64,000 bases of DNA from the NCBI RefSeq assembly GCF_000027125.1, contig NC_017626.1. One strand, written 5' to 3'. A model generated the notes under the pieces. The model was not told the origin of the DNA. It searched no databases and saw nothing but the letters and a program-made list of their open reading frames with translations. Position 1 is the stretch's first letter, and each line of letters begins with the position of its first letter. Source of the DNA: Escherichia coli 042 (GTDB lineage Bacteria > Pseudomonadota > Gammaproteobacteria > Enterobacterales > Enterobacteriaceae). Positions 20,402-61,912 of this stretch are shown in pieces. Position numbers and translations under genes: made by a program.

Positions 20402-20557
20402 TTACTCCTCAGGTTCGTAAGCTGTGAAGACAGCGACCTCCGTCTGGCCGGTTCGGATTCGTACCTCGCAGAGGTCTTTCCTCGTTACCAGTGCCGTCAC
20501 AATGACGGTTAAACAGATGACGATCAGGGCGATTAGCATCGCCTTTTGCTGCTTCAT
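20402..20557 (-). CDS. hokD: Hok/Gef-family type I toxin
   Basis: MKQQKAMLIALIVICLTVIVTALVTRKDLCEVRIRTGQTEVAVFTAYEPEE, Hok-family 51-aa toxin; longer overlapping frame to 20614 is Mok-like leader. Confidence 0.8.
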   Translation of the reverse strand: MKQQKAMLIALIVICLTVIVTALVTRKDLCEVRIRTGQTEVAVFTAYEPEE

Positions 20558-20848
20558 AGCCTGCTTCTCCTTGCCTTTCGGCGCGTAAGAGGCTAACCTA
20601 GATTTGCCGTTCATAGATTGAGCCTCAGATTAATGTTAAGCGTCTTGCAGGACGCGTAATGTTAACTGGGGCTTTTCTCTATCTGCCTTTTGGTGTTCAT
20701 GCCTGAGACAGATAGCCTCAAGCACCCGCTGCAATTCTACTTAACTCTCCTTTTCCCGCAAACCGTTTTTATCCCCAGCGGCAAATCGAATACACCACCA
20801 GCGCCACCGCCATCGCAATTCCTACCGTTGTTAATGCTTCAGGCCAGC

Positions 20849-27907: not shown

Positions 27908-27965
27908 TTTCTGGTGACGTTTGGCGGTATCAGTTTTACTCCGTGACTGCTCTGCCGCCCTTTTT
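27908..27965 (+). ncRNA. dicF: DicF small RNA (ftsZ-targeting sRNA of dicB operon)
   Basis: TTTCTGGTGACGTTTGGCGGTATCAGTTTTACTCCGTGACTGCTCTGCCGCCC + TTTTT matches the DicF sRNA with its terminator; sits between ydfC-like gene and dicB. Confidence 0.85.
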
Positions 27966-41356: not shown

Positions 41357-41434
41357 GGGAGTAACTGAATTTCCTGATGAATTTTTACGGACGCCAAAAA
41401 CGACAATTCAGGGTGGCGTTCTGAGAATTAATGT

Positions 41435-41451
41435 GAATAATAACCATTATC
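41435..41451. promoter_or_regulatory. Fur box-like site in ybtP-ybtA divergent promoter region
   Basis: GAATAATAACCATTATC resembles Fur consensus GATAATGATAATCATTATC. Confidence 0.6.
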
Positions 41452-41522
41452 AATAACTCATCTACCCCATTCGGTTCTATTTATACCCGCATTGGTCTAA
41501 GCCACAGGGAGATAACCAGGTC

Positions 41523-42482
41523 ATGACGGAGTCACCGCAAACGCAATCTGAAATCTCTATTCACCAGTTGGTGGTCGGGAAACCTGCAAACGATGGCAAT
41601 ATTCCTGCTCAGTGTGAACTGCTGCGCTGTTCGTTGCAGGAAGGTATGGATATTTTGCTCTGGAGGGGCCATTTTGCGCGGCCAGAGACGTTGCAGCTAC
41701 ACGACGATCTGGGCAGGATTAACTTCTCGTGCATCCTGGAAGGCACATCGCGCTTTGCGATTCAGGGACTCCGGCGCCACACCGACTGGGAGCTTGCGCG
41801 CAATCGCCATTACATTACCCATACGCCAGACTGTCGCGGCAGCGCCTCCTATTGTGGCCGATTCGAGAGCATTACCCTCTCCTTCAGCCCTGAAACCCTC
41901 GCGCTGTGGGTGCCGGATATTAGCGCGGTCATTAAGAATAAGATCGACTCCCACTGCTGTTGCCAGCAGCAGCGTTGTAATGCTGAAACCCACTTAACGG
42001 CTCAGGCCTTGCGTCACGCGCTGATGCGCATGCACGGCGGCTTCAGTCATGAACAAAAGCCGTCGACGCTATGGTTGCAGGGGCAAAGTCTGGTCATGCT
42101 CAGCCTGGTGCTGGATGAACATCGCGAAGACGCCAGTTGCCTCTCCTGCCACTTCAACCCGATGGAACGCCAGAAACTGCTGCGGGCGAAGGATCTGCTG
42201 CTGGCTGATCTGACGCAAGCGCCGGGCGTCGCGGAGCTGGCCAGAGAGTCCGGTCTGAGCGTTCTCAAAATTAAGCGAGGCTTCCGCGTTCTGTTCAACA
42301 ACAGCGTCTATGGCCTGTTTCAGGCTGAACGAATGCAGGAAGCCAGAAGACGCCTGGCCAACGGCAATACCTCCGTCATGACGGTGGCGGCCGATCTGGG
42401 CTATGCCAACGCCAGCCATTTCTCTGCCGCCTTCCAGAAACAGTTTGGCGTAACTCCTTCGACCTTTAAACGCGGGATGTAA
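41523..42482 (+). CDS. ybtA: AraC-family transcriptional activator YbtA
   Basis: 319 aa; C-terminal AraC HTH; divergent from ybtP. Confidence 0.9.
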   Translation: MTESPQTQSEISIHQLVVGKPANDGNIPAQCELLRCSLQEGMDILLWRGHFARPETLQLHDDLGRINFSCILEGTSRFAIQGLRRHTDWELARNRHYITHTPDCRGSASYCGRFESITLSFSPETLALWVPDISAVIKNKIDSHCCCQQQRCNAETHLTAQALRHALMRMHGGFSHEQKPSTLWLQGQSLVMLSLVLDEHREDASCLSCHFNPMERQKLLRAKDLLLADLTQAPGVAELARESGLSVLKIKRGFRVLFNNSVYGLFQAERMQEARRRLANGNTSVMTVAADLGYANASHFSAAFQKQFGVTPSTFKRGM

Positions 42483-42573
42483 CCGGGGTCGCGCCCCCCT
42501 AAACTCCTCCCTGACAGAGGCCCGGATACCCCATCCGGGCCTCTGTTCTTTCCGTCTGTTACCAACCCGAAAC

Positions 42574-42640
42574 GGGCATAAATAAACCCGTTTCGGGTAG
42601 CATCCAATTGTTAATAATTATTATTCTCATATGAGTAATG
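42574..42640. promoter_or_regulatory. irp2 promoter: YbtA-binding inverted repeat plus AT-rich Fur-like box
   Basis: CCCGAAACGGG...AACCCGTTTCGGGTAG inverted repeat (42576-42610) followed by TTAATAATTATTATTCTCAT; same repeat upstream of fyuA. Confidence 0.65.
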
Positions 42641-42672
42641 CTTTTCGGTAAGACGTGCCATCAGGAGGAAGA

Positions 42673-45600
42673 ATGATTTCTGGCGCACCATCTCAGGATT
42701 CGCTGTTACCGGACAACCGCCACGCGGCTGATTACCAACAATTACGCGAGCGGCTCATACAGGAACTGAATTTAACGCCGCAGCAGTTACATGAAGAGAG
42801 CAACCTGATCCAGGCCGGCCTGGATTCCATAAGATTGATGAGATGGTTACACTGGTTTCGTAAAAATGGCTACCGCCTTACCCTTCGCGAGCTGTATGCC
42901 GCCCCCACGCTGGCGGCATGGAACCAGTTAATGCTCAGCCGGTCGCCGGAGAACGCGGAAGAAGAAACGCCGCCCGACGAATCATCCTGGCCGAACATGA
43001 CCGAAAGTACCCCCTTCCCATTGACGCCAGTACAGCACGCCTACCTGACGGGCCGCATGCCGGGGCAGACGCTTGGCGGCGTGGGTTGCCACCTGTATCA
43101 GGAGTTTGAAGGCCATTGTCTGACGGCGTCGCAGCTGGAGCAGGCCATCACGACCTTGCTGCAACGCCACCCAATGCTGCATATCGCCTTTCGCCCCGAC
43201 GGGCAGCAGGTCTGGCTACCGCAACCTTACTGGAACGGCGTCACCGTTCATGATTTACGCCATAACGACGCTGAAAGCCGCCAGGCCTATCTGGACGCAC
43301 TGCGCCAGCGCCTGAGCCACCGTCTTTTACGCGTGGAAATCGGCGAAACGTTTGATTTTCAGCTGACGCTCTTGCCGGACAATCGCCACCGCCTCCATGT
43401 CAATATTGACCTGCTGATTATGGATGCCTCCAGCTTTACGCTTTTCTTCGATGAGCTTAACGCCCTGCTGGCCGGAGAATCGCTGCCGGCTATCGACACC
43501 CGCTATGATTTCCGCTCGTATTTGCTGCACCAGCAGAAGATCAATCAACCACTGAGAGACGACGCGCGCGCTTACTGGCTGGCGAAAGCATCGACGCTTC
43601 CCCCCGCGCCCGTCTTGCCGCTGGCCTGCGAACCCGCCACGCTATGTGAAGTCCGTAATACCCGACGCCGCATGATTGTCCCGGCAACACGCTGGCACGC
43701 CTTTAGCAACCGGGCCGGCGAGTATGGCGTGACGCCGACAATGGCACTGGCGACCTGTTTTTCTGCCGTGCTGGCTCGCTGGGGCGGCCTGACGCGTCTG
43801 CTGCTTAACATCACCTTATTCGACCGCCAGCCGCTGCACCCGGCGGTTGGCGCGATGCTTGCCGACTTCACCAATATTCTTCTGCTGGATACCGCCTGCG
43901 ATGGCGATACCGTCAGCAACCTGGCGCGTAAAAACCAGCTCACGTTTACGGAGGACTGGGAGCATCGCCACTGGTCCGGCGTCGAATTACTCCGTGAACT
44001 CAAACGCCAGCAGCGCTACCCCCACGGCGCCCCGGTGGTATTTACCAGCAATCTGGGGCGTTCCCTCTACAGCAGCCGCGCAGAATCGCCGTTGGGCGAG
44101 CCGGAATGGGGCATCTCGCAAACGCCGCAGGTCTGGATAGATCATCTGGCGTTCGAGCATCACGGCGAGGTCTGGCTACAATGGGACAGCAACGACGCGC
44201 TGTTCCCTCCGGCGTTAGTCGAAACATTGTTCGACGCCTACTGCCAGTTGATTAACCAACTCTGCGATGACGAAAGCGCCTGGCAAAAGTCGTTCGCAGA
44301 TATGATGCCCGCCAGCCAGCGCGCGATACGCGAACGGGTCAACGCCACCGGCGCCCCCATTCCCGAAGGCTTGCTGCATGAAGGCATTTTCCGTATCGCT
44401 CTGCAACAGCCGCAGGCGCTGGCGGTAACGGACATGCGTTATCAGTGGAATTATCATGAGCTGACAGACTATGCCCGCCGTTGCGCGGGCAGGTTAATCG
44501 AGTGCGGGGTTCAGCCCGGCGATAATGTGGCTATCACGATGTCGAAAGGCGCAGGACAACTTGTTGCGGTTCTGGCCGTCCTGCTGGCCGGGGCGGTTTA
44601 CGTTCCGGTTTCGCTGGATCAGCCTGCCGCACGGCGCGAGAAAATCTACGCTGACGCCAGCGTCCGGCTGGTGCTCATTTGTCAGCACGACGCCAGCGCC
44701 GGGTCAGACGATATTCCCGTCCTTGCCTGGCAGCAGGCCATTGAGGCGGAGCCGATCGCCAACCCGGTAGTACGCGCCCCCACGCAACCGGCCTACATTA
44801 TCTACACCTCCGGCTCTACCGGTACGCCGAAAGGGGTAGTCATTTCTCACCGGGGAGCGCTTAACACCTGTTGCGATATCAATACCCGCTATCAGGTTGG
44901 CCCGCATGACAGGGTGCTGGCCCTCTCCGCCCTACATTTTGATTTATCGGTTTACGACATTTTTGGCGTACTGCGCGCGGGCGGCGCGCTGGTGATGGTG
45001 ATGGAAAATCAACGGCGCGATCCTCACGCATGGTGTGAGCTGATCCAGCGCCATCAGGTCACGCTCTGGAACAGCGTCCCGGCGCTGTTCGATATGCTGC
45101 TGACCTGGTGTGAAGGTTTCGCCGACGCCACGCCGGAAAACCTGCGCGCAGTGATGCTTTCCGGCGACTGGATCGGGCTTGACCTCCCCGCCCGTTATCG
45201 GGCCTTCCGGCCACAAGGACAATTTATCGCGATGGGCGGTGCCACCGAGGCGTCTATCTGGTCTAACGCCTGCGAAATTCACGACGTCCCCGCCCACTGG
45301 CGCTCCATCCCTTACGGTTTTCCGCTAACCAACCAACGCTACCGGGTGGTGGATGAACAGGGCCGGGACTGCCCTGACTGGGTGCCGGGTGAATTATGGA
45401 TTGGCGGCATTGGGGTCGCGGAAGGCTATTTCAACGATCCCCTGCGTAGCGAGCAGCAATTTTTGACGCTCCCGGACGAGCGCTGGTATCGCACCGGCGA
45501 TCTCGGCTGCTACTGGCCAGATGGCACAATCGAGTTCCTCGGTCGTCGCGACAAGCAGGTCAAAGTCGGAGGATATCGCATCGAGCTGGGCGAAATCGAA

Positions 45601-48600
45601 AGCGCGCTCAGCCAGCTGGCGGGGGTGAAACAAGCAACCGTTCTGGCGATCGGCGAAAAAGAAAAAACGCTGGCGGCATACGTTGTTCCTCAGGGCGAGG
45701 CTTTTTGCGTTACCGATCATCGGAACCCGGCACTGCCGCAGGCGTGGCACACGCTTGCGGGAACGTTGCCCTGTTGCGCCATCTCGCCAGAGATCTCCGC
45801 AGAACAGGTAGCCGATTTCCTTCAGCATCGCCTGCTAAAACTGAAGCCGGGTCACACCGCTGGCGCCGATCCTCTCCCCCTGATGAACTCACTCGCTATC
45901 CAGCCGCGCTGGCAGGCCGTGGTGGAACGCTGGTTAGCATTTCTGGTGACACAACGGCGACTGAAGCCCGCTGCTGAAGGTTATCAGGTCTGCGCTGGTG
46001 AAGAACGCGAGGATGAGCACCCGCACTTCAGCGGACATGATTTAACGTTATCGCAAATTCTTCGCGGTGCCCGTAACGAACTGTCGTTACTGAACGACGC
46101 GCAGTGGTCGCCAGAAAGCCTGGCCTTTAACCATCCGGCCAGCGCCCCGTATATTCAGGAACTGGCGACAATTTGCCAACAGCTTGCACAGCGCTTACAG
46201 CGCCCGGTGCGCCTGCTTGAGGTGGGAACCCGCACTGGCCGCGCCGCAGAATCGCTGTTAGCACAGCTCAACGCCGGACAGATTGAGTATGTCGGGCTTG
46301 AGCAGAGCCAGGAGATGCTGCTGAGCGCCCGGCAGAGGCTCGCCCCCTGGCCTGGCGCCCGTCTGTCCCTCTGGAATGCAGACACGCTGGCGGCGCACGC
46401 TCACTCGGCGGACATTATCTGGCTTAATAACGCCCTGCATCGTCTGCTGCCGGAAGATCCCGGGCTCCTTGCGACATTACAACAGCTTGCCGTTCCCGGC
46501 GCGCTGCTCTACGTGATGGAGTTTCGCCAGTTAACGCCGTCCGCCCTACTCAGCACGCTCCTGTTAACCAATGGGCAGCCGGAGGCCTTGCTGCATAACA
46601 GCGCCGACTGGGCGGCATTATTTAGCGCGGCCGCCTTCAACTGTCAGCATGGCGATGAGGTCGCGGGGTTACAACGCTTCCTCGTACAATGTCCTGACAG
46701 GCAGGTGCGCCGCGATCCCCGTCAACTTCAGGCCGCCCTCGCCGGGCGTCTGCCGGGGTGGATGGTGCCGCAACGGATCGTCTTCCTCGACGCCTTACCG
46801 CTGACGGCTAACGGGAAAATTGACTACCAGGCGCTGAAGCGTCGTCATACCCCTGAAGCGGAAAACCCGGCCGAAGCGGATTTACCCCAGGGCGACATTG
46901 AAAAACAGGTTGCCGCCCTCTGGCAGCAACTCTTATCAACTGGCAATGTCACCAGAGAAACCGACTTCTTCCAGCAAGGCGGCGATAGCCTGCTGGCGAC
47001 CCGTCTGACCGGGCAACTTCATCAGGCAGGTTATGAAGCGCAATTAAGCGACCTGTTTAATCATCCCCGGCTGGCGGATTTTGCCGCCACGCTGCGGAAA
47101 ACCGACGTCCCGGTCGAACAACCATTCGTCCACTCCCCTGAAGATCGCTACCAGCCCTTTGCGCTTACCGACGTGCAGCAGGCTTACCTGGTGGGGCGTC
47201 AGCCGGGCTTTGCCCTGGGCGGCGTCGGCTCACATTTCTTTGTTGAATTTGAAATTGCCGATCTGGATCTCACCCGGTTGGAGACGGTCTGGAACCGATT
47301 AATCGCCCGCCACGATATGCTACGCGCCGTCGTGCGTGATGGACAGCAACAGGTGCTCGAACAGACGCCTCGCTGGGTAATACCCGCACACATCCTCCAT
47401 ACGCCTGAAGAGGCGTTGCAGGTGCGCGAAAAACTGGCCCATCAGGTACTCAACCCCGAAGTCTGGCCGGTATTCGATCTCCAGGTCGGTTACGTTGACG
47501 GGATGCCCGCCCGCCTGTGGCTGTGTCTGGATAACCTGTTACTTGACGGGCTGAGCATGCAGATTCTGTTGGCGGAGCTGGAGCACGGCTACCGCTACCC
47601 GCAACAGCTGCTTCCGCCGCTGCCCGTCACCTTCAGGGATTATCTGCAACAACCCTCGCTACAGTCGCCCAATCCAGATTCTCTGGCATGGTGGCAGGCG
47701 CAGCTTGATGATATTCCTCCGGCGCCTGCGTTGCCGCTGCGCTGCTTGCCTCAGGAGGTTGAAACACCGCGCTTCGCCCGCCTGAACGGCGCACTGGACA
47801 GCACGCGCTGGCATCGGCTGAAAAAACGGGCGGCTGACGCCCATCTCACCCCGTCGGCCGTACTGTTGTCGGTGTGGTCAACGGTTCTCTCTGCATGGAG
47901 TGCACAGCCTGAGTTCACGCTTAACCTTACGCTTTTCGACAGGCGACCGCTGCACCCGCAAATCAACCAGATTCTGGGCGATTTCACCTCGCTGATGCTG
48001 CTGAGCTGGCATCCCGGCGAAAGCTGGCTGCACAGCGCGCAGTCACTACAGCAGCGGCTGAGCCAGAACCTCAACCACCGCGATGTGTCAGCCATCCGCG
48101 TGATGCGTCAACTGGCGCAACGGCAAAACGTGCCTGCCGTTCCGATGCCCGTCGTCTTTACCAGCGCACTGGGCTTTGAGCAGGATAACTTCCTCGCCCG
48201 GCGTAATCTGCTCAAACCGGTCTGGGGCATCTCCCAGACGCCGCAGGTCTGGCTCGATCACCAGATTTATGAATCCGAAGGCGAACTGCGCTTTAACTGG
48301 GATTTTGTCGCCGCGCTGTTTCCTGCCGGGCAGGTGGAGCGCCAGTTTGAACAGTATTGCGCATTGCTAAACCGAATGGCCGAGGATGAAAGCGGCTGGC
48401 AACTGCCGCTCGCCGCGCTGGTGCCTCCCGTTAAACACGCAGGGCAATGCGCAGAGCGCTCACCGCGCGTATGCCCTGAGCACTCTCAGCCACACATTGC
48501 GGCGGACGAGAGCACCGTCAGCCTGATTTGCGACGCCTTCCGCGAGGTGGTTGGCGAGTCTGTCACGCCCGCAGAAAACTTCTTTGAGGCGGGCGCAACG

Positions 48601-48780
48601 TCGCTGAATCTGGTGCAACTGCACGTTTTGTTACAACGTCACGAATTTTCCACCCTGACGTTGCTTGACCTCTTCACCCACCCTTCTCCTGCTGCCCTGG
48701 CCGATTATCTGGCCGGCGTCGCCACGGTGGAGAAAACAAAACGACCTCGCCCTGTTCGCCGTCGTCAGCGGCGGATATAG
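42673..48780 (+). CDS. irp2: yersiniabactin NRPS HMWP2
   Basis: ~2035 aa; ArCP, cyclisation domains, adenylation domain (SGSTGTPKG), embedded methyltransferase, PCP domains; ORF 42655-48780. Confidence 0.9.
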
Positions 48781-48867
48781 CGCGAAGCAAACTGATTTTC
48801 CCCGGAACGCCATCGCGAACGCATGGCGTTCCATTGACTTTGTGAATCTTAGGAAACGGGACCGATT

Positions 48868-51800
48868 ATGGATAACTTGCGCTTCTCTTCTGCGCCGACA
48901 GCAGATTCCATTGATGCATCGATCGTTCAACACTACCCGGACTGCGAACCTGTCGCGGTTATCGGCTACGCCTGCCATTTTCCTGAATCGCCGGATGGCG
49001 AAACGTTCTGGCAAAATCTGCTGGAAGGTCGTGAATGCAGCCGACGCTTTACGCGCGAAGAGCTTCTGGCCGTCGGTCTGGATGCCGCCATCATTGACGA
49101 TCCTCATTATGTCAATATCGGTACGGTGTTAGACAACGCCGACTGCTTCGACGCCACCCTGTTTGGCTATTCGCGACAGGAAGCGGAGTCGATGGACCCG
49201 CAGCAGCGCCTGTTTTTGCAGGCGGTCTGGCATGCGCTGGAACATGCCGGTTATGCCCCCGGCGCCGTCCCCCATAAGACCGGCGTTTTCGCCTCTTCCC
49301 GGATGAGTACCTACCCCGGTCGCGAAGCATTGAACGTGACAGAAGTCGCGCAGGTAAAAGGTCTGCAATCTCTGATGGGCAATGATAAAGACTATATTGC
49401 CACCCGCGCCGCGTACAAACTCAACCTGCACGGCCCGGCGTTATCGGTACAGACCGCCTGCTCCAGCTCGCTGGTTGCCGTGCATCTGGCCTGTGAAAGC
49501 CTGCGCGCAGGCGAATCCGATATGGCGGTTGCCGGCGGCGTGGCGCTCTCTTTCCCCCAGCAGGCAGGCTACCGCTACCAGCCCGGAATGATTTTCTCTC
49601 CTGATGGTCACTGTCGTCCCTTTGACGCCTCGGCTGAGGGCACCTGGGCCGGTAACGGTCTCGGCTGCGTGGTGCTGCGTCGCCTGAGAGACGCGCTGCT
49701 GTCAGGCGATCCGATTATCTCGGTGATCCTCTCCAGCGCGGTCAACAACGACGGCAACAGAAAGGTCGGCTATACCGCCCCTTCCGTCGCAGGGCAACAG
49801 GCAGTCATCGAAGAGGCGTTAATGCTGGCGGCCATCGACGACAGGCAGGTAGGTTACATTGAAACCCACGGCACCGGCACACCGCTGGGCGACGCGATTG
49901 AAATTGAAGCGTTACGCAACGTCTATGCGCCTCGCCCGCAGGATCAGCGCTGTGCGCTCGGTTCCGTGAAAAGTAACATGGGCCATCTGGATACCGCGGC
50001 GGGCATTGCCGGACTGCTGAAAACCGTTCTGGCAGTCAGTCGCGGGCAAATTCCTCCCTTACTGAATTTTCACACCCCCAACCCGGCGCTGAAACTTGAA
50101 GAGAGCCCCTTTACCATACCGGTGTCGGCACAGGCATGGCAGGACGAAATGCGCTATGCGGGCGTCTCCTCCTTTGGTATTGGCGGCACCAACTGCCATA
50201 TGATCGTCGCCTCGCTGCCCGACGCGCTCAACGCGCGCCTCCCCAATACGGATAGCGGCAGAAAAAGTACCGCGCTGCTGCTCAGCGCCGCCAGCGACAG
50301 CGCGTTGCGGCGGCTGGCGACGGATTATGCCGGGGCGCTGAGAGAGAATGCGGATGCCAGCTCTCTGGCCTTCACAGCCCTGCACGCGCGCCGTCTCGAT
50401 CTCCCCTTCCGCCTGGCGGCGCCATTAAACCGTGAAACCGCCGAGGCGCTCAGCGCCTGGGCCGGTGAGAAATCGGGGGCGCTGGTTTACAGCGGCCACG
50501 GCGCCAGCGGCAAGCAGGTGTGGCTGTTTACCGGCCAGGGCTCGCACTGGCGCACTATGGGTCAAACGATGTACCATCACTCAACGGCGTTTGCCGACAC
50601 GCTGGATCGCTGTTTTTCCGCCTGTAGCGAAATGCTCACGCCGTCACTGCGCGAAGCGATGTTTAACCCCGATTCGGCGCAGCTGGACAATATGGCCTGG
50701 GCGCAGCCGGCGATTGTCGCGTTTGAAATCGCGATGGCGGCGCACTGGCGTGCTGAAGGACTGAAGCCAGACTTCGCCATTGGGCATTCCGTCGGTGAAT
50801 TTGCCGCTGCCGTTGTCTGCGGACACTATACGATTGAACAGGTCATGCCACTGGTTTGTCGGCGCGGCGCGCTAATGCAGCAGTGCGCAAGCGGCGCGAT
50901 GGTGGCGGTATTTGCAGACGAAGACACGCTGATGCCGCTGGCTCGCCAGTTTGAGCTGGATCTCGCCGCCAACAACGGTACGCAACATACGGTATTTTCC
51001 GGGCCGGAAGCCCGTCTCGCGGTATTTTGCGCCACGCTCTCGCAGCATGACATTAACTATCGTCGCCTGAGCGTAACCGGTGCGGCGCACTCCGCTTTAC
51101 TGGAGCCGATACTCGATCGGTTCCAGGACGCCTGCGCGGGACTGCACGCGGAGCCGGGGCAAATACCGATTATTTCCACGCTCACCGCCGACGTCATTGA
51201 TGAGTCAACGCTCAACCAGGCGGATTACTGGCGCCGACACATGCGCCAGCCGGTGCGTTTTATCCAGAGTATTCAGGTGGCGCATCAGCTCGGCGCCCGC
51301 GTTTTTCTGGAGATGGGGCCCGATGCCCAGTTGGTTGCTTGCGGGCAGCGCGAATACCGCGATAACGCATACTGGATAGCCAGCGCCCGGCGTAACAAAG
51401 AGGCGAGCGATGTCCTCAATCAGGCCCTGCTCCAGCTTTACGCTGCCGGCGTCGCCCTACCGTGGGCCGACCTGCTGGCGGGCGATGGACAACGTATCGC
51501 TGCGCCATGTTATCCGTTTGATACTGAACGTTACTGGAAAGAGCGCGTCTCCCCGGCCTGCGAGCCTGCCGACGCAGCGCTGTCTGCCGGGCTGGAGGTG
51601 GCGAGTCGCGCCGCGACAGCGCTCGATCTCCCTCGCCTGGAAGCGCTTAAACAGTGCGCCACGCGACTGCACGCCATCTACGTCGATCAACTGGTACAAC
51701 GCTGTACCGGCGATGCCATTGAGAACGGCGTGGACGCCATGACCATCATGCGCCGTGGACGTCTGCTGCCCCGCTACCAGCAGCTACTCCAGCGCCTGCT

Positions 51801-54800: not shown

Positions 54801-57800
54801 CGACGGGCAGCAGCGAATCCTGGCGACAACGCCGGAGTATCACATCCCGCGTGACGATCTGCGCGCGCTTTCCCCGGAAGAACAGCGCATCGCGCTGGAA
54901 AAACGGCGGCATGAACTGAGCTATCGCGTTTTGCCTGCCGACCAGTGGCCTCTTTTTGAGCTGGTGGTCAGCGAAATCGACGATTGCCATTACCGTCTGC
55001 ATATGAACCTCGACCTTTTGCAGTTTGATGTGCAGAGTTTTAAAGTCATGATGGACGACCTGGCGCAGGTCTGGCGCGGTGAAACGCTGGCACCGCTCGT
55101 TATTACCTTCCGTGATTATGTGATGGCTGAACAGGCGCGCCGACAGACATCGGCATGGCACGATGCCTGGGATTACTGGCAGGAAAAACTGCCGCAACTG
55201 CCCTTAGCGCCAGAGCTGCCGGTGGTTGAGACGCCCCCGGAAACGCCACACTTCACCACCTTCAAATCGACGATCGGCAAGACAGAATGGCAGGCCGTGA
55301 AACAGCGCTGGCAGCAGCAAGGCGTCACACCGTCTGCCGCGCTGCTCACGCTGTTTGCCGCCACCCTTGAGCGCTGGAGCCGTACCACAACATTTACGCT
55401 GAACCTGACGTTCTTCAATCGCCAGCCGATCCATCCGCAAATCAACCAGTTGATTGGTGATTTTACCTCCGTCACGCTGGTTGATTTTAACTTCTCAGCG
55501 CCGGTGACGTTGCAAGAGCAGATGCAACAGACCCAACAGCGCCTCTGGCAAAACATGGCGCACAGTGAAATGAACGGTGTTGAGGTGATCCGTGAGCTGG
55601 GCCGCCTGCGCGGATCACAACGTCAACCGCTGATGCCGGTAGTGTTTACCAGTATGCTGGGGATGACGCTGGAAGGCATGACTATCGATCAGGCGATGAG
55701 CCATCTGTTCGGCGAACCCTGCTATGTATTCACGCAAACGCCGCAGGTCTGGCTGGATCATCAGGTCATGGAGAGCGACGGCGAGTTGATGTTTAGCTGG
55801 TACTGCATGGACAACGTGCTGGAACCCGGCGCTGCCGAGGCGATGTTTAATGACTATTGCGCCATCCTGCAAGCCGTCATCGCCGCCCCTGAAAGCCTGA
55901 AGACTCTCGCCAGCGGCATCGCCAGGCACATTCCCCGCCGACGCTGGCCGCTGAACGCGCAGGCGGACTACGACCTGCGGGATATTGAGCAGGCGACGCT
56001 CGAATACCCCGGCATCCGGCAGGCCAGAGCGGAAATAACCGAACAGGGCGCGTTGACGCTGGATATCGTGATGGCCGACGATCCTTCGCCATCAGCGGCG
56101 ATGCCTGATGAGCACGAACTTACCCAACTGGCGCTGCCGTTGCCTGAGCAGGCGCAGCTTGATGAGCTGGAGGCGACCTGGCGCTGGCTGGAGGCGCGTG
56201 CGCTACAGGGGATCGCGGCTACGCTAAATCGTCACGGCCTGTTTACCACGCCGGAGATCGCCCATCGCTTTAGCGCAATAGTACAGGCGCTGTCCTCGCA
56301 AGCATCTCACCAGCGTCTGCTGCGCCAGTGGCTACAGTGTCTGACGGAAAGAGAGTGGTTAATCCGCGAAGGTGAAAGCTGGCGCTGCCGCATTCCGCTC
56401 AGCGAGATTCCTGAGCCTCAGGAAGCGTGCCCGCAAAGCCAATGGAGCCAGGCGCTGGCGCAGTATCTGGAAACCTGCATCGCCCGGCACGACGCCCTCT
56501 TCTCCGGGCAGTGTTCTCCGCTGGAATTGCTGTTCAACGAGCAGCATCGCGTTACCGACGCGCTGTATCGCGACAACCCCGCCAGCGCCTGTCTGAATCG
56601 CTATACCGCGCAGATTGCCGCCTTGTGCAGCGCAGAACGGATTCTGGAGGTTGGCGCCGGAACCGCAGCCACTACCGCGCCGGTGCTGAAGGCCACGCGG
56701 AACACGCGACAGTCGTACCACTTCACGGACGTCTCCGCGCAGTTCCTCAATGACGCCAGAGCCCGTTTCCATGATGAATCGCAGGTGTCTTATGCCTTGT
56801 TCGACATCAACCAGCCGCTGGATTTCACCGCCCACCCGGAGGCGGGTTACGACCTGATCGTTGCCGTCAATGTGCTCCACGACGCCAGCCATGTCGTCCA
56901 GACGTTGCGCAGATTAAAACTGTTGCTGAAAGCCGGCGGACGTTTGCTGATCGTTGAAGCGACGGAGCGAAACAGCGTATTCCAGCTGGCGAGCGTGGGC
57001 TTTATTGAGGGATTAAGCGGATACCGCGATTTCCGCCGCCGGGATGAGAAACCGATGCTCACCCGCTCCGCATGGCAGGAGGTTCTCGTTCAGGCCGGGT
57101 TTGCAAACGAGCTGGCGTGGCCCGCGCAGGAATCGTCGCCGCTGCGCCAGCATCTGCTGGTAGCGCGTTCGCCTGGCGTAAATCGCCCGGATAAAAAAGC
57201 CGTGAGCCGCTATTTACAGCAGCGCTTTGGCACCGGTCTGCCCATTTTACAGATCCGGCAAAGAGAAGCGTTATTTACGCCGCTGCATGCCCCGTCTGAT
57301 GCGCCGACTGAGCCAGCCAAACCCACGCCAGTTGCCGGGGGGAATCCGGCACTGGAAAAACAGGTGGCTGAACTCTGGCAATCGCTGCTGTCTCGCCCCG
57401 TGGCAAGGCATCACGACTTTTTCGAACTGGGCGGCGACAGCCTGATGGCGACAAGGATGGTCGCGCAGCTAAACCGGAGAGGGATTGCCAGGGCTAACCT
57501 TCAGGATCTGTTCAGCCATTCGACGCTGAGCGACTTCTGCGCCCATCTACAGGCGGCTACGTCAGGAGAGGACAACCCGATACCCCTTTGCCAGGGCGAC
57601 GGTGAGGAAACCCTGTTTGTCTTCCACGCTTCAGACGGCGATATCAGCGCCTGGCTGCCGCTCGCTAGCGCGTTGAACAGGCGCGTTTTCGGCCTGCAAG
57701 CAAAATCGCCGCAGCGCCTTGCCACGCTCGACCAGATGATCGATGAGTATGTCGGGTGCATCCGTCGTCAGCAGCCTCACGGCCCTTATGTGCTGGCGGG

Positions 57801-58359
57801 TTGGTCGTATGGCGCGTTTCTTGCGGCGGGCGCCGCACAACGCCTGTACGCCAAAGGCGAGCAGGTTCGGATGGTGTTAATCGATCCCGTGTGCCGACAG
57901 GATTTCTGTTGCGAAAACCGGGCGGCCCTGCTGCGCCTGTTAGCCGAAGGACAAACGCCTCTGGCACTGCCCGAACATTTCGACCAGCAGACGCCCGACA
58001 GCCAGCTTGCCGACTTTATCAGCCTCGCTAAAACGGCCGGTATGGTGTCGCAAAACCTGACGCTGCAAGCGGCAGAAACGTGGCTCGACAACATCGCGCA
58101 TCTGCTGCGTTTACTGACTGAGCATACGCCGGGCGAAAGCGTTCCGGTCCCCTGTCTCATGGTGTATGCCGCCGGGAGACCCGCGCACTGGACGCCAGCA
58201 GAAACCGAGTGGCAGGGCTGGATAAACAACGCCGACGACGCTGTGATTGAAGCCAGCCACTGGCAAATCATGATGGAAGCCCCCCACGTTCAGGCTTGTG
58301 CGCAACACATTACGCGCTGGCTTTGCGCAACCTCAACGCAACCGGAGAACACGTTATGA
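48868..58359 (+). CDS. irp1: yersiniabactin PKS/NRPS hybrid HMWP1
   Basis: 3163 aa; KS (TACSSSL), AT (GHSVGE), MT, KR, ACP then NRPS cyclisation, MT, PCP and C-terminal thioesterase (GWSYG). Confidence 0.9.
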   Translation: MDNLRFSSAPTADSIDASIVQHYPDCEPVAVIGYACHFPESPDGETFWQNLLEGRECSRRFTREELLAVGLDAAIIDDPHYVNIGTVLDNADCFDATLFGYSRQEAESMDPQQRLFLQAVWHALEHAGYAPGAVPHKTGVFASSRMSTYPGREALNVTEVAQVKGLQSLMGNDKDYIATRAAYKLNLHGPALSVQTACSSSLVAVHLACESLRAGESDMAVAGGVALSFPQQAGYRYQPGMIFSPDGHCRPFDASAEGTWAGNGLGCVVLRRLRDALLSGDPIISVILSSAVNNDGNRKVGYTAPSVAGQQAVIEEALMLAAIDDRQVGYIETHGTGTPLGDAIEIEALRNVYAPRPQDQRCALGSVKSNMGHLDTAAGIAGLLKTVLAVSRGQIPPLLNFHTPNPALKLEESPFTIPVSAQAWQDEMRYAGVSSFGIGGTNCHMIVASLPDALNARLPNTDSGRKSTALLLSAASDSALRRLATDYAGALRENADASSLAFTALHARRLDLPFRLAAPLNRETAEALSAWAGEKSGALVYSGHGASGKQVWLFTGQGSHWRTMGQTMYHHSTAFADTLDRCFSACSEMLTPSLREAMFNPDSAQLDNMAWAQPAIVAFEIAMAAHWRAEGLKPDFAIGHSVGEFAAAVVCGHYTIEQVMPLVCRRGALMQQCASGAMVAVFADEDTLMPLARQFELDLAANNGTQHTVFSGPEARLAVFCATLSQHDINYRRLSVTGAAHSALLEPILDRFQDACAGLHAEPGQIPIISTLTADVIDESTLNQADYWRRHMRQPVRFIQSIQVAHQLGARVFLEMGPDAQLVACGQREYRDNAYWIASARRNKEASDVLNQALLQLYAAGVALPWADLLAGDGQRIAAPCYPFDTERYWKERVSPACEPADAALSAGLEVASRAATALDLPRLEALKQCATRLHAIYVDQLVQRCTGDAIENGVDAMTIMRRGRLLPRYQQLLQRLLNNCVVDGDYRCTDGRYVRARPIEHQQRESLLTELAGYCEGFQAIPDTIARAGDRLYEMMSGAEEPVAIIFPQSASDGVEVLYQEFSFGRYFNQIAAGVLRGIVQTRQPRQPLRILEVGGGTGGTTAWLLPELNGVPALEYHFTDISALFTRRAQQKFADYDFVKYSELDLEKEAQSQGFQAQSYDLIVAANVIHATRHIGRTLDNLRPLLKPGGRLLMREITQPMRLFDFVFGPLVLPLQDLDAREGELFLTTAQWQQQCRHAGFSKVAWLPQDGSPNAGMSEHIILATLPGQAVSAVTFTAPSEPVLGQALTDNGDYLADWSDCAGQPEQFNARWQEAWRLLSQRHGDALPVEPPPVAAPEWLGKVRLSWQNEAFSRGQMRVEARHPAGEWLPLSPAAPLPAPQTHYQWRWTPLNVASIDHPLTFSFSAGTLARSDELAQYGIIHDPHASSRLMIVEESEDTLALAEKVIAALTASAAGLIVVTRRAWRVEENEALSASHHALWALLRVAANEQPERLLAAIDLAENTPWETLHQGLSAVSLSQRWLAARGDTLWLPSLSPNTGCAAELPANVFTGDSRWHLVTGAFGGLGRLAVNWLREKGARRIALLAPRVDESWLRDVEGGQTRVCRCDVGDAGQLATVLDDLAANGGIAGAIHAAGVLADAPLQELDDHQLAAVFAVKAQAASQLLQTLRNHDGRYLILYSSAAATLGAPGQSAHALACGYLDGLAQQFSTLDAPKTLSVAWGAWGESGRAATPEMLATLASRGMGALSDAEGCWHLEQAVMRGAPWRLAMRVFTDKMPPLQQALFNISATEKAATPVIPPADDNAFNGSLSDETAVMAWLKKRIAVQLRLSDPASLHPNQDLLQLGMDSLLFLELSSDIQHYLGVRINAERAWQDLSPHGLTQLICSKPEATPAASQPEVLRHDADERYAPFPLTPIQHAYWLGRTHLIGYGGVACHVLFEWDKRHDEFDLAILEKAWNQLIARHDMLRMVVDADGQQRILATTPEYHIPRDDLRALSPEEQRIALEKRRHELSYRVLPADQWPLFELVVSEIDDCHYRLHMNLDLLQFDVQSFKVMMDDLAQVWRGETLAPLVITFRDYVMAEQARRQTSAWHDAWDYWQEKLPQLPLAPELPVVETPPETPHFTTFKSTIGKTEWQAVKQRWQQQGVTPSAALLTLFAATLERWSRTTTFTLNLTFFNRQPIHPQINQLIGDFTSVTLVDFNFSAPVTLQEQMQQTQQRLWQNMAHSEMNGVEVIRELGRLRGSQRQPLMPVVFTSMLGMTLEGMTIDQAMSHLFGEPCYVFTQTPQVWLDHQVMESDGELMFSWYCMDNVLEPGAAEAMFNDYCAILQAVIAAPESLKTLASGIARHIPRRRWPLNAQADYDLRDIEQATLEYPGIRQARAEITEQGALTLDIVMADDPSPSAAMPDEHELTQLALPLPEQAQLDELEATWRWLEARALQGIAATLNRHGLFTTPEIAHRFSAIVQALSSQASHQRLLRQWLQCLTEREWLIREGESWRCRIPLSEIPEPQEACPQSQWSQALAQYLETCIARHDALFSGQCSPLELLFNEQHRVTDALYRDNPASACLNRYTAQIAALCSAERILEVGAGTAATTAPVLKATRNTRQSYHFTDVSAQFLNDARARFHDESQVSYALFDINQPLDFTAHPEAGYDLIVAVNVLHDASHVVQTLRRLKLLLKAGGRLLIVEATERNSVFQLASVGFIEGLSGYRDFRRRDEKPMLTRSAWQEVLVQAGFANELAWPAQESSPLRQHLLVARSPGVNRPDKKAVSRYLQQRFGTGLPILQIRQREALFTPLHAPSDAPTEPAKPTPVAGGNPALEKQVAELWQSLLSRPVARHHDFFELGGDSLMATRMVAQLNRRGIARANLQDLFSHSTLSDFCAHLQAATSGEDNPIPLCQGDGEETLFVFHASDGDISAWLPLASALNRRVFGLQAKSPQRLATLDQMIDEYVGCIRRQQPHGPYVLAGWSYGAFLAAGAAQRLYAKGEQVRMVLIDPVCRQDFCCENRAALLRLLAEGQTPLALPEHFDQQTPDSQLADFISLAKTAGMVSQNLTLQAAETWLDNIAHLLRLLTEHTPGESVPVPCLMVYAAGRPAHWTPAETEWQGWINNADDAVIEASHWQIMMEAPHVQACAQHITRWLCATSTQPENTL

Positions 58360-59456
58360 TGCCGTCCGCCTCCCCAAAACAACGCGTACTGATTGTGGGC
58401 GCCAAATTTGGCGAAATGTACCTGAATGCCTTTATGCAGCCCCCGGAGGGGCTGGAACTGGTCGGCCTGCTGGCGCAGGGAAGCGCCCGTTCAAGAGAGC
58501 TGGCTCATGCGTTTGGCATTCCGCTGTATACCTCGCCGGAACAGATAACCAGGATGCCGGATATCGCCTGTATTGTCGTGCGTTCGACCGTCGCCGGAGG
58601 AACCGGTACGCAGCTTGCCAGACACTTTCTGACGCGCGGCGTACACGTCATTCAGGAGCATCCCCTCCACCCGGATGACATCAGTTCCTTACAAACGCTG
58701 GCGCAGGAACAGGGCTGCTGCTATTGGGTAAACACGTTTTATCCGCATACGCGCGCGGGACGCACATGGCTTCGCGATGCGCAGCAGCTGCGTCGCTGTC
58801 TGGCTAAGACGCCGCAGGTGGTCCACGCCACCACCAGCCGACAGTTGCTCTACTCCACTCTGGATTTGTTGTTGCTGGCTCTGGGCGTTGATGCCGTCGC
58901 CGTGGAGTGCGACGTGGTTGGCAGCTTTAGCGATTTTCACTGTCTGAGACTCTTCTGGCCGGAGGGAGAAGCCTGCCTGCTGCTTCAGCGCTATCTCGAT
59001 CCTGACGATCCAGATATGCATAGCCTTATCATGCACCGCCTGCTGCTGGGCTGGCCGGAAGGTCATCTTTCGCTGGAGGCGAGCTACGGCCCCGTCATCT
59101 GGTCATCCAGCCTGTTTGTCGCAGACCATCAGGAGAACGCCCACAGCCTCTACCGCAGACCGGAGATCCTGCGCGATCTGCCGGGTCTGACGCGCAGCGC
59201 GGCGCCCCTGAGCTGGCGCGACTGCTGCGAAACCGTCGGGCCGGAGGGCGTCAGCTGGTTGCTACACCAGTTGCGCAGCCATCTGGCGGGCGAACATCCA
59301 CCAGCGGCCTGCCAAAGCGTACATCAGATCGCGTTATCACGTTTATGGCAGCAGATTTTACGTAAGACCGGCAATGCGGAGATCAGACGCCTGACGCCGC
59401 CGCACCACGACCGGTTAGCCGGTTTCTACAACGATGATGATAAGGAGGCGCTGTGA
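58356..59456 (+). CDS. ybtU: thiazolinyl imide reductase YbtU
   Basis: ~366 aa from MMPSASPKQRVLIVGAKFGEMYL (Rossmann N-terminus); start overlaps irp1 stop. Confidence 0.85.
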   Translation: MMPSASPKQRVLIVGAKFGEMYLNAFMQPPEGLELVGLLAQGSARSRELAHAFGIPLYTSPEQITRMPDIACIVVRSTVAGGTGTQLARHFLTRGVHVIQEHPLHPDDISSLQTLAQEQGCCYWVNTFYPHTRAGRTWLRDAQQLRRCLAKTPQVVHATTSRQLLYSTLDLLLLALGVDAVAVECDVVGSFSDFHCLRLFWPEGEACLLLQRYLDPDDPDMHSLIMHRLLLGWPEGHLSLEASYGPVIWSSSLFVADHQENAHSLYRRPEILRDLPGLTRSAAPLSWRDCCETVGPEGVSWLLHQLRSHLAGEHPPAACQSVHQIALSRLWQQILRKTGNAEIRRLTPPHHDRLAGFYNDDDKEAL

Positions 59457-60256
59457 CGCAATCTGCAATGTGCATACCGCTGTGGCCCGCCCGGAACGGC
59501 AATACTGCGCATCTGGTCATGTGCCCTTTCGCTGGCGGCAGCAGTAGCGCGTTTCGCCACTGGCAAGCTGAGCAACTGGCTGATTGCGCGCTTTCTCTGG
59601 TGACCTGGCCGGGGCGCGATCGCCTTCGCCATCTGGAACCGCTCAGAAGCATTACACAACTGGCGGCACTGCTGGCGAACGAGCTGGAAGCATCCGTATC
59701 GCCTGACACGCCGCTTTTACTCGCCGGGCACAGCATGGGGGCGCAGGTGGCGTTTGAAACCTGCCGACTTCTGGAGCAACGGGGGCTTGCGCCACAAGGA
59801 CTGATTATTTCCGGGTGCCATGCCCCGCATCTGCATTCTGAACGCCAGCTCAGCCATCGCGATGATGCCGACTTTATCGCTGAGCTGATAGACATTGGCG
59901 GATGTTCTCCTGAACTGCGGGAAAACCAGGAATTAATGTCGCTGTTTCTTCCTCTTCTGCGCGCTGATTTTTACGCCACCGAGAGCTATCACTACGACTC
60001 GCCCGACGTCTGTCCGCCGCTGCGCACGCCTGCGCTGTTATTGTGCGGCAGCCACGATCGCGAAGCCTCCTGGCAGCAGGTCGATGCCTGGCGTCAGTGG
60101 CTGAGCCACGTTACAGGCCCGGTGGTGATTGACGGCGATCATTTCTATCCCATTCAACAAGCCCGGTCCTTTTTTACGCAGATTGTCCGCCATTTTCCCC
60201 ACGCATTTTCTGCAATGACCGCGTTGCAAAAACAGCCCAGTACTTCAGAAAGGTGA
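59453..60256 (+). CDS. ybtT: type II thioesterase YbtT
   Basis: 267 aa alpha/beta hydrolase with GHSMG motif. Confidence 0.85.
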   Translation: MTQSAMCIPLWPARNGNTAHLVMCPFAGGSSSAFRHWQAEQLADCALSLVTWPGRDRLRHLEPLRSITQLAALLANELEASVSPDTPLLLAGHSMGAQVAFETCRLLEQRGLAPQGLIISGCHAPHLHSERQLSHRDDADFIAELIDIGGCSPELRENQELMSLFLPLLRADFYATESYHYDSPDVCPPLRTPALLLCGSHDREASWQQVDAWRQWLSHVTGPVVIDGDHFYPIQQARSFFTQIVRHFPHAFSAMTALQKQPSTSER

Positions 60257-60259
60257 CGC

Positions 60260-61837
60260 ATGAATTCTTCCTTTGAATCTCTGATTGAACAGTATCCCTT
60301 ACCCATTGCCGAACAGTTGCGCCACTGGGCGGCCCGTTATGCCTCGCGAATTGCCGTCGTTGATGCAAAGGGGTCGTTAACCTACAGCGCGCTTGATGCA
60401 CAAGTTGACGAACTTGCCGCAGGTCTGTCATCACTGGGTTTGCGTTCGGGGGAGCATGTAATTGTGCAGCTTCCCAACGACAACGCGTTTGTTACCCTGC
60501 TGTTCGCCTTGTTAAGACTGGGCGTTATCCCCGTGCTGGCGATGCCCTCGCAACGGGCGCTGGATATCGACGCGCTGATTGAGCTGGCGCAACCCGTCGC
60601 TTACGTTATTCACGGGGAAAACCACGCAGAGCTGGCCCGACAGATGGCGCACAAACACGCCTGCTTGCGTCATGTTCTGGTCGCTGGAGAGACCGTGAGC
60701 GACGATTTTACGCCGCTCTTCTCCCTTCACGGTGAGCGACAGGCATGGCCGCAGCCTGATGTTTCCGCCACCGCGTTGTTGTTGCTCTCAGGCGGCACAA
60801 CCGGCACGCCAAAACTCATCCCGCGCCGACATGCCGACTATAGCTATAACTTCAGCGCTTCTGCTGAACTGTGCGGCATCAGCCAACAGAGCGTGTATCT
60901 CGCCGTCCTCCCGGTGGCGCATAACTTTCCGCTGGCCTGCCCCGGTATTCTGGGAACGCTTGCCTGCGGCGGAAAAGTGGTGCTGACCGACAGCGCCAGC
61001 TGTGATGAGGTGATGCCTTTAATCGCGCAGGAAAGAGTGACTCACGTCGCCCTGGTTCCGGCGCTGGCGCAATTATGGGTGCAGGCCAGGGAGTGGGAAG
61101 ACAGCGACCTTTCGTCGCTGCGCGTCATTCAGGCAGGCGGCGCCCGGCTCGCCCCGACGCTTGCTGAGCAGGTTATCGCCACCTTTGACTGTACCCTGCA
61201 ACAGGTTTTCGGTATGGCGGAAGGCCTGCTCTGTTTTACCCGGCTGGACGATCCGCATGCCACCATTCTCCACAGCCAGGGGCGCCCGTTGTCCCCTCTG
61301 GATGAAATCCGCATCGTTGATCAAGACGAGAACGACGTCGCGCCGGGCGAAACCGGGCAATTGTTAACGCGCGGCCCTTATACCATTTCGGGCTATTACC
61401 GCGCCCCTGCCCACAACGCGCAGGCCTTTACCGCGCAAGGGTTTTACCGCACAGGCGACAATGTCAGGCTGGATGAGGTGGGGAACCTGCACGTTGAGGG
61501 ACGCATAAAAGAGCAGATCAACCGCGCCGGAGAAAAAATAGCCGCGGCTGAAGTGGAATCGGCACTGCTGCGTTTAGCGGAAGTGCAAGATTGCGCGGTG
61601 GTCGCCGCGCCGGACACGCTGCTTGGCGAGCGGATTTGCGCGTTTATCATCGCGCAGCAGGTGCCAACTGACTATCAGCAGTTGCGTCAACAACTGACCC
61701 GTATGGGGCTCAGCGCGTGGAAAATTCCTGACCAAATCGAGTTTCTGGACCACTGGCCGCTCACCGCCGTCGGCAAGATAGACAAAAAACGCCTGACGGC
61801 TCTCGCCGTCGACCGTTATCGCCATTCTGCCCAATAA
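60260..61837 (+). CDS. ybtE: salicyl-AMP ligase YbtE
   Basis: 525 aa stand-alone adenylation enzyme (LSGGTTGTPK, YRTGD motifs). Confidence 0.9.
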   Translation: MNSSFESLIEQYPLPIAEQLRHWAARYASRIAVVDAKGSLTYSALDAQVDELAAGLSSLGLRSGEHVIVQLPNDNAFVTLLFALLRLGVIPVLAMPSQRALDIDALIELAQPVAYVIHGENHAELARQMAHKHACLRHVLVAGETVSDDFTPLFSLHGERQAWPQPDVSATALLLLSGGTTGTPKLIPRRHADYSYNFSASAELCGISQQSVYLAVLPVAHNFPLACPGILGTLACGGKVVLTDSASCDEVMPLIAQERVTHVALVPALAQLWVQAREWEDSDLSSLRVIQAGGARLAPTLAEQVIATFDCTLQQVFGMAEGLLCFTRLDDPHATILHSQGRPLSPLDEIRIVDQDENDVAPGETGQLLTRGPYTISGYYRAPAHNAQAFTAQGFYRTGDNVRLDEVGNLHVEGRIKEQINRAGEKIAAAEVESALLRLAEVQDCAVVAAPDTLLGERICAFIIAQQVPTDYQQLRQQLTRMGLSAWKIPDQIEFLDHWPLTAVGKIDKKRLTALAVDRYRHSAQ

Positions 61838-61844
61838 GCGCAAA

Positions 61845-61912
61845 CCGACCCGAAACAGGTTGAAATAAACCCGTTTCGGGTAGCACTACTATTAGAAATA
61901 GTTATCATTTTC
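61845..61912. promoter_or_regulatory. fyuA promoter: YbtA-binding repeat plus Fur box
   Basis: ACCCGAAACAGG...AAACCCGTTTCGGGTAGCA (61847-61885) then GAAATAGTTATCATTTTC (61895-61912). Confidence 0.65.

Follow-up and report, generated by a model that had tools for sequence, protein, structure and literature searches.

Shared repeat modules with Fur boxes, putative YbtA operators, ahead of the ybtP, irp2 and fyuA operons of the Escherichia coli high-pathogenicity island

The DNA analyzed here, a 64,000-nucleotide stretch (the 64-kb window) of contig NC_017626.1 from Escherichia coli 042, contains the E. coli form of the high-pathogenicity island (HPI) known from Yersinia, and our subject is the repeat (RS) modules and Fur boxes that stand ahead of its yersiniabactin operons. 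The region 41000-43000 is 100% identical to the chromosome of E. coli 118UI, and of 5,426 complete E. coli genomes 2,267 carry it. RefSeq gives the island the order int, then ybtS-ybtX-ybtQ-ybtP on one strand, with ybtA, irp2, irp1, ybtU, ybtT, ybtE and fyuA on the other; the names ybtP, ybtA, irp2 and fyuA used in an earlier note on this DNA are also those of RefSeq. The gene ybtA (41523-42482, plus strand; a 319-aa open reading frame (ORF), YbtA in RefSeq) encodes the AraC-type regulator of the RS modules, and with Pfam HTH_18 at residues 239-317, plus HTH_AraC, the regulator encoded at the locus is intact. On the same strand, by ORF and RefSeq annotation, irp2 begins with the ATG at 42673, ybtE ends with the stop at 61837 and fyuA begins with the ATG at 61968.

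A common repeat ahead of both irp2 and fyuA, as the earlier note had claimed, is indeed present at both places. The exact 17-mer AAACCCGTTTCGGGTAG occurs twice in the window (42584-42600 and 61867-61883), each copy having an imperfect reverse-complement partner 21 nt upstream, and there are four matches to this 17-mer at no more than 3 mismatches where shuffled sequence gives an expectation of 0.06. A repeat finder reports inverted-repeat arms of 12 nt with a 10-nt gap at irp2 and of 14 nt with a 6-nt gap at fyuA, and the block common to the two promoters is 36 nt long, 32 of the 36 positions being identical. The irp2 module, ACCCGAAACGGGCATAAATAAACCCGTTTCGGGTAG, occupies 42565-42600 on the plus strand, with its cores at 42566-42576 and 42587-42597 and a -35-like GTAGCA at 42597-42602. 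The fyuA module, ACCCGAAACAGGTTGAAATAAACCCGTTTCGGGTAG, is found at 61848-61883, also on the plus strand, with cores at 61849-61859 and 61870-61880 and a -35-like GTAGCA at 61880-61885. The span given earlier for fyuA (61847-61885) was thus essentially right, and that for irp2 (42574-42610) lay about 9 nt too far to the right. The earlier note did not contain a third module, GACCAATGCGGGTATAAATAGAACCGAATGGGGTAG, which lies on the minus strand at 41462-41497, faces ybtP (distal element 41484-41497, proximal element 41463-41476) and aligns without gaps to the other two; a strict core search misses it because it is more degenerate, with 12 of 16 core positions. All three modules are immediately upstream of, and oriented to, a YbtA-activated operon (irp2, fyuA/psn and ybtP/irp6), and no feature is annotated at their positions in the inspected RefSeq records.

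Each module consists of two RS elements, the core of which is an internally palindromic 11 bp, CCCG-N3-CGGG, with 21 bp, equal to two turns of the helix, from centre to centre and an A-rich spacer between the cores (consensus near yAnAAATArA). TAG follows the promoter-proximal element only, giving the GGGTAG end, and it follows that the module has polarity and that its two elements are direct repeats. The inverted-repeat look of the irp2 and fyuA copies arises because the cores are self-complementary and because the central triplets in these HPI copies happen to be AAA/TTT; the triplets are non-complementary in the ybtP copy (ATG/AAT) and in most distant copies. The description of the site as an inverted repeat therefore holds for irp2 and fyuA, but the conserved unit is a pair of direct, self-palindromic cores with fixed polarity.

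The Fur boxes were assessed with three models: the classical 19-mer consensus GATAATGATAATCATTATC, scored at every position on both strands of the window (~128,000 positions); the 7-1-7 consensus TGAnAATnATTcTCA from chromatin immunoprecipitation with exonuclease (ChIP-exo; PMC10164565); and a cross-genus position weight matrix (PWM) built from five distant-genus boxes. Between ybtP and ybtA lies a Fur-box cluster at 41422-41457 that is common to both divergent promoters, its core 19-mer at 41433-41451 (GTGAATAATAACCATTATC on the plus strand, GATAATGGTTATTATTCAC on the minus strand) matching the 19-mer consensus at 15/19 on the plus and 14/19 on the minus strand; the predicted -10 of ybtP, TATTAT at 41437-41442 on the minus strand, falls within it. 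Read on that strand, GACCAATGCGGGTATAAATAGAACCGAATGGGGTAG is followed after 10 nt by GATAATGGTTATTATTCAC. The irp2 box, GTTAATAATTATTATTCTC, at 42610-42628 (plus strand), matches at 15/19 on the minus and 14/19 on the plus strand and contains a predicted -10, TATTAT, at 42619-42624. These two boxes are the best two matches to the 19-mer consensus in the window (ranks 1-2 of ~128,000). The Fur-like box of fyuA, AGAAATAGTTATCATTTTC, at 61894-61912 (plus strand), with 13/19 on the minus strand and a predicted -10 TATCAT at 61903-61908, is the weakest of the three. By the ChIP-exo consensus, clusters of overlapping sites scoring at least 10/13 occur at 41422-41452 (three overlapping 15-mers) and at 42609-42629, with irp2 reaching 11/13. 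The cross-genus Fur-box PWM places the three boxes as the top three loci of the window (22.1, 20.5 and, for fyuA, 18.7 bits), each score individually not being above the best of local-composition shuffles (max 23.3). In the three promoters the 19-mer begins 10, 9 and 10 nt after the repeat module, and a score of 13/19 is reached at only 13 of ~64,000 plus-strand positions (~2 in 10,000 per strand); three boxes at a fixed offset of 9-10 nt from three modules, taken with this rarity, are far beyond chance. As judged from the sequence, then, it is position in register that is the decisive point for reading these boxes as Fur sites. The earlier note had a Fur-like box after each repeat, and both are there, the one at irp2 strong and the one at fyuA clearly weaker by general Fur models; its Fur-like site at 41435-41451 was recovered at 41433-41451, though the region that it described as a Fur site carries a complete RS module as well. 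In published work, purified Fur binds in electrophoretic mobility shift assays (EMSA) both an irp2 box identical to window 42610-42628 and a ybtA box, GTGAATAATAAGCATTATC, that differs from the window by 1 nt (PMC11225919). A review (PMC3521224) that cites Gao 2008 gives all four ybt operons as direct targets of Fur and YbtA in Yersinia pestis. The supplements of the Fur ChIP-exo pan-regulon paper have no text entries for fyuA, ybtA, irp2 or ybtP.

For the comparison across genera, relatives were found by anchoring on the YbtA protein and not on the repeat, one genome per species being scanned (L numbers denote the loci compared). The YbtA homologues come from Klebsiella oxytoca, K. indica and K. 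michiganensis (97% identity), Serratia symbiotica (75%), two Pectobacterium (55-56%) and S. marcescens (52%). The RS motif stands beside these homologues, over the whole range of 52-97% identity, in 6 of the 7 loci, and is decayed in the pseudogenised locus of S. symbiotica. A 36-nt module PWM, for which six sites beside the Pectobacterium and S. marcescens YbtA homologues of 52-56% identity were the sole training set, finds exactly three strong modules in the 64-kb window, all at 35-39 bits (38.9 at ybtP, 36.7 at irp2 and 35.4 at fyuA). Below them come the reverse strands of two modules at 17 bits, the best unrelated position reaches 7.6, and the best scores of 200 local-composition shuffles averaged 8.6 and went no higher than 20.2. 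In Pectobacterium and S. marcescens the genes for the ATP-binding cassette (ABC) transporter, the major facilitator superfamily (MFS) protein and the receptor are preceded by a core, a 10-nt A-rich spacer, a core with GGGTAG, 10 nt, a Fur box and TATYAT, and their receptor-gene promoters carry better Fur boxes than fyuA in the same place. The motif scan proposed in the earlier note thus came out positive, for the YbtA module PWM as for the Fur consensus and PWM, and the repeats, whose absence from other HPI sequences would by that note have spoken against them, are kept in other HPI and ybt-like loci.

The clusters in Pectobacterium (L005/L006, 8000-15000) and S. marcescens (L007, 6200-14900) are uptake-only: two ABC permease/ATPase genes diverge from the AraC-type regulator, after which come an MFS gene of the RhtX/FptX type and the gene of a TonB-dependent siderophore receptor, and no synthetase genes are present within their 10-kb flanks. 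The receptor of L005 is in two ORFs (12927-13769 and 13863-14933) and is possibly a pseudogene. Downstream of the ybtA homologue of S. marcescens there is also an RS module without a Fur box (L007 10934-10969), which keeps a -10-like TATGCT at the usual distance and implies that the YbtA operator and the Fur box are separable.

Closer to the window, conservation falls on the elements themselves. In an alignment of E. coli, three Klebsiella and one Salmonella plasmid copy, 7 of the 110 columns inside the RS and Fur elements vary, and 70 of the 246 columns that lie outside them in the two intergenic regions (p=7e-7). The irp2 module is kept in K. oxytoca, K. michiganensis and the Salmonella plasmid, the ybtP module in the Klebsiella copies, and the fyuA module in K. 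indica and the plasmid copies. Among E. coli, the module was found only in the 2,266 HPI-positive of the 5,426 genomes, at a median of two places per genome. The module is conserved together with the DNA-binding domain of YbtA: the C-terminal helix-turn-helix (HTH) region of the Pectobacterium and Serratia homologues is 76-79% identical and the N-terminal region 38-44%, a contrast that fits a conserved operator and a diverged ligand.

In S. symbiotica (L008 9750-10000 and 10830-10900) the island is decaying, with in-frame stops in irp2, and its RS elements have substitutions and an indel in the proximal RS, the Fur-like boxes being still AT-rich. The stretch 4765-8147 of E. coli EC22 plasmid p1 (L011, 156 kb) holds, among insertion sequence (IS) fragments, an orphan fyuA that has kept the RS and Fur module and lies beside a 5'-truncated ybtE, and ybtA was not seen in the inspected stretch of this plasmid. 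An E. coli module that appeared to be only '80% identical' (H58), and so a candidate for a divergent lineage, turned out to be a fyuA copy on a plasmid.

All nine Fur-box modules, from three genera, have TATYAT within the Fur box at 17 bp (16 at irp2) past GTAGNN, the first base of which is also the last of the proximal core. If, as this spacing suggests, GTAGNN is a weak -35 and TATYAT the -10, the core centres would lie at about -40 and -61, which would be the standard AraC/XylS class II arrangement; two direct-repeat half-sites 21 bp apart, the proximal one at the predicted -35, are found in all copies. The RS modules are putative YbtA operators, and that YbtA binds them and that they are needed for activation is taken from PMC5634559 and PMC8725597. 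Both papers place Fur boxes, and RS as the sites of YbtA, at the promoters in question, although PMC8725597 still terms the sites 'putative' or 'predicted'.

Very probably, then, the three operons ybtPQXS, irp2-irp1-ybtUTE and fyuA are each preceded by one composite, directional RS-Fur module that works as a Fur/YbtA switch along the following lines. With iron, Fur-Fe2+ would sit on the box and occlude the -10. Without iron, Fur would come off and YbtA, probably as a dimer charged with yersiniabactin, would occupy both RS elements and touch RNA polymerase from about -40 and -61 in the manner of a class II AraC/XylS-type activator. As both the release of Fur and charged YbtA would be needed, expression would require low iron and a siderophore signal together. 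In the divergent region the same bound YbtA would activate ybtP and repress ybtA. The earlier reading of these sequences as YbtA and Fur regulatory sites of irp2 and fyuA, with a Fur site between ybtP and ybtA, is supported by the motif scans, the conservation and the published Fur EMSA.

The points that weigh against this switch concern the promoter elements, the divergent region and the fyuA box. A simple sigma-70 consensus scan calls no promoter at any of the three sites, and the -35 and -10 are to that extent unproven; the missed call is, however, expected of activator-dependent promoters, whose -35 elements are poor. In the divergent region, the published ybtA transcription start site (TSS), determined in pESI, is a C located 5 bp past the Fur box and 266 bp before the ATG, with a 201-bp insertion (PMC11225919). 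It maps to about window 41457, 66 nt before the ATG, and the RS module at 41462-41497, which faces ybtP, then covers the ybtA transcript from about +6 to +41. YbtA at this position would activate ybtP and obstruct ybtA, which matches the reported activation of irp6/ybtP and autorepression of ybtA by YbtA (PMC5634559, PMC3521224). In HPI-negative hosts, however, YbtA activates and does not repress PybtA (PMC5634559), and this stimulation implies that the autorepression part is context-dependent and not fully understood. Strong PybtA activity was seen only from the longest construct (PMC5634559); the truncated constructs would lack the ybtA -35 and the upstream region, whose place would be the left edge of the Fur cluster or beyond it. 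Three RS, moreover, are given in the literature for the ybtA/ybtP region, and in the order of the constructs (RS3 - Fur box - RS1 - RS2 - ybtA) the ybtP side of the Fur box belongs to RS3 (PMC5634559). Two RS between the Fur box and ybtA are also present in the window, in agreement with the published reporter constructs, but a third one, sought in the ybtP/ybtA region with a single-element PWM, was not found (best score -1.6 bits). The only candidate for RS3 is a conserved block at 41389-41421 in the ybtP leader, on the side of the Fur box that is upstream for ybtA. Even S. symbiotica has retained this block, which contains an imperfect inverted repeat, GGACGCCA-N17-TGGCGTTC; it goes unrecognised by the RS PWM and may be RS3 or a leader RNA structure.

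Two side observations belong to this region. The start of ybtP is ambiguous, 41266 (RefSeq, 570 aa) versus 41356 (the longest ORF, 600 aa); the Salmonella plasmid annotation also gives a 600-aa ybtP, and the choice shifts the length of the leader after the ybtP promoter by 90 nt. In two loci, a Salmonella IncC plasmid (L009, NZ_CP022063, ~905-1105) and a metagenome contig (L010, 12207-12402), the distal RS of the ybtP module is interrupted by an insertion of ~200 bp, which is 98% identical between the two, sits at one and the same site and contains a core like the enterobacterial repetitive intergenic consensus (ERIC). This insertion corresponds to the 201-bp insertion of pESI (PMC11225919).

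The fyuA box is the remaining point against the switch, and it gives room for the view that the AT-rich stretch after the fyuA repeat is a -10 region only and not a Fur operator, with iron control of fyuA being indirect, via Fur on ybtA. Its 13/19 is tied with about 25 other positions in the window and is marginal alone, and it stays below 10/13 on the ChIP-exo 7-1-7 consensus. The published Fur EMSA covers the ybtA and irp2 boxes (PMC11225919) and not that of fyuA, and the S. marcescens module without a Fur box illustrates that a box can be parted from its RS. Yet the fyuA box is at the same 10-nt offset as the other copies and is the third-ranked locus by the distant-locus Fur PWM, better boxes stand at the same place in the receptor promoters of Pectobacterium and S. 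marcescens, and the review PMC3521224, citing Gao 2008, counts all four ybt operons of Y. pestis among the direct targets of Fur. Purely indirect iron control of fyuA is therefore unlikely in our judgement. A different objection is that the irp2 and fyuA repeats act mainly, or additionally, as RNA hairpins, i.e. as terminators or 3'-end stabilisers of the ybtA and ybtE transcripts. The predicted hairpins are strong (-23.0 kcal/mol and a z score of -5.6 at irp2; -20.2 kcal/mol and -4.5 at fyuA), both are just downstream of a co-directional gene (ybtA before irp2, ybtE before fyuA), and no other terminator-like structure exists on the plus strand between the ybtE stop (61837) and fyuA. Neither hairpin, however, has a T-run or U-tract on the plus strand, where the next bases are AGCAUCC (irp2) and AGCACUA (fyuA), so that they do not qualify as Rho-independent terminators, and a terminator scan calls them on the minus strand only, where the spacer supplies the T-run. 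In addition, ybtA already has a canonical terminator, a perfect inverted repeat at 42514-42546 on the plus strand with 14-bp arms, a 5-nt loop and then TTCTTTCC as a T-rich tail (RNA fold -29.3 kcal/mol, z -6.6), which is just 3' of the ybtA stop and insulates the irp2 promoter from the ybtA transcript. Neither the ybtP copy (z 0 and -0.7) nor the modules of Pectobacterium and S. marcescens (z -1.0 and -1.5) have the potential to form a hairpin, though the sequence module is kept, the central triplets being non-complementary in the distant loci; and an Rfam scan at gathering level found no RNA family at the sites. With the ybtP and distant modules lacking hairpin potential, an RNA hairpin was rejected as the conserved function, and we hold the hairpin explanation of the two repeats to be quite improbable, although a secondary hairpin role at the 3' end of ybtE may exist.

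It could be argued, finally, that the repeats are relics or copies of a mobile or repetitive element, of the repetitive extragenic palindromic (REP), ERIC or miniature inverted-repeat transposable element (MITE)-like kind, or recombination sites, and have no regulatory role. There are indeed two near-identical copies with 19 kb between them, the ends of a natural deletion in K. indica meet within the repeat, and the ~200-bp ERIC-like element is inserted in the ybtP-side copy in some plasmids. But the sequence is confined to the island and occurs nowhere else in the 5,426 E. coli genomes, its polarity and its distance to the Fur box, the -10 and the YbtA-activated gene are always the same, the repeats co-occur with YbtA homologues across genera, and neither the 2,266 E. 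coli genomes nor the 198 plasmids show the deletion; a repeat without regulatory role is very hard to credit, and the composite RS-Fur module remains by far the reading that we prefer.

The K. indica deletion is of interest in its own right. There (L003 4268-4340), ybtA is directly followed by an intact 673-aa fyuA, and the junction joins an irp2-type left flank and distal RS, a shared proximal RS, and a fyuA-type Fur box and leader. This hybrid promoter points to recombination between the two repeats that precisely removed the 19.3 kb of irp2-irp1-ybtUTE. One metagenome contig (L010 11086-11140) shares the junction, but with 99% identity it belongs to the K. indica lineage and does not count as an event of its own; a K. 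indica-type fusion of the irp2 promoter to that of fyuA was seen in 0 of 2,266 HPI-positive E. coli genomes and 0 of 198 plasmids. It is tempting to extend the RS-Fur module to a broader role, as the operator of a wider YbtA-type family that includes the uptake-only ('piracy') clusters, with the HPI copies serving also as recombination substrates that excise the 19.3-kb biosynthesis operon; we regard this as nearly an even question, leaning slightly against it. If true, excision would leave a YbtA- and Fur-regulated, receptor-only locus, as in K. indica, and so a ready-made route to siderophore 'cheaters'.

Elsewhere in the window, Rfam matches at gathering level comprise the STnc100 small RNA, the sok antitoxin RNA (hok/sok), DicF RNA and four tRNAs, with coordinates 15753-15942, 20552-20727, 27909-27960, 16642-16891, 32389-32475 and 33467-33539. 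The tRNA at 33467-33539 is just ahead of the island and fits the tRNA-Asn annotated beside the island integrase in 118UI.

The feature described here is an ordinary one that was known before. The observation holds, the earlier reading of it is supported, and confirming the sites adds no new biology; what is added are corrected coordinates of the modules, the third module, the description as direct repeats in fixed register and the support from other genera. The sites matter in that they would set a low-iron and siderophore-present logic for yersiniabactin, which in extraintestinal E. coli, Klebsiella and Yersinia is a major factor in virulence and fitness, and the cross-genus motif can be used for finding YbtA-type regulons elsewhere. 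The nearest known system is that of the Yersinia HPI itself, with RS1/RS2/RS3 and Fur sites at psn/fyuA, irp2 and ybtA-irp6/ybtP (Fetherston 1996 and Anisimov 2005, as far as these are summarised in PMC5634559, PMC8725597 and PMC11225919). Island, genes and promoters are the same here, and nothing is substantively different, except that the PWM recognises two RS in the divergent region of the window where the literature has three.

At the class II sites of the AraC/XylS family (araI1-I2 and the sites of RhaS, XylS and MelR), direct half-sites are spaced 21 bp apart, the proximal one overlaps a poor -35, and the protein binds through a C-terminal double HTH. YbtA resembles these in its spacing, in the predicted overlap with the -35 (by geometry, and not by mapped E. 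coli starts) and in its HTH_18 domain; it differs in that its elements are internally palindromic (CCCG-N3-CGGG), which is unusual for AraC-family half-sites. At the PchR box of Pseudomonas aeruginosa (Michel 2005, cited in PMC8639528), an AraC-type regulator charged with its siderophore reportedly activates the pyochelin biosynthesis and receptor operons and represses its own gene. PchR shares with YbtA an operator of repeated motifs next to or overlapping the -35, accompanied by Fur boxes, but the operator sequence and the effector (pyochelin) are different. PchR, AlcR, DesR/FoxR and PbtA are the siderophore-responsive AraC-type kin of YbtA (PMC7600106, PMC8639528, PMC9804782), and YbtA, PchR and AlcR cluster together phylogenetically (PMC7600106). 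In the FoxR-foxA system of Salmonella, an AraC-like regulator controls a siderophore receptor by binding two direct repeats, which lie upstream of a promoter with a -10 that overlaps a Fur box (PMC9804782). FoxR differs from YbtA in being xenosiderophore-only, in having one target promoter and in the unrelated sequences of its repeats. The uptake-only clusters of Pectobacterium and Serratia resemble FoxR-foxA in their logic, but with an operator of the YbtA type.

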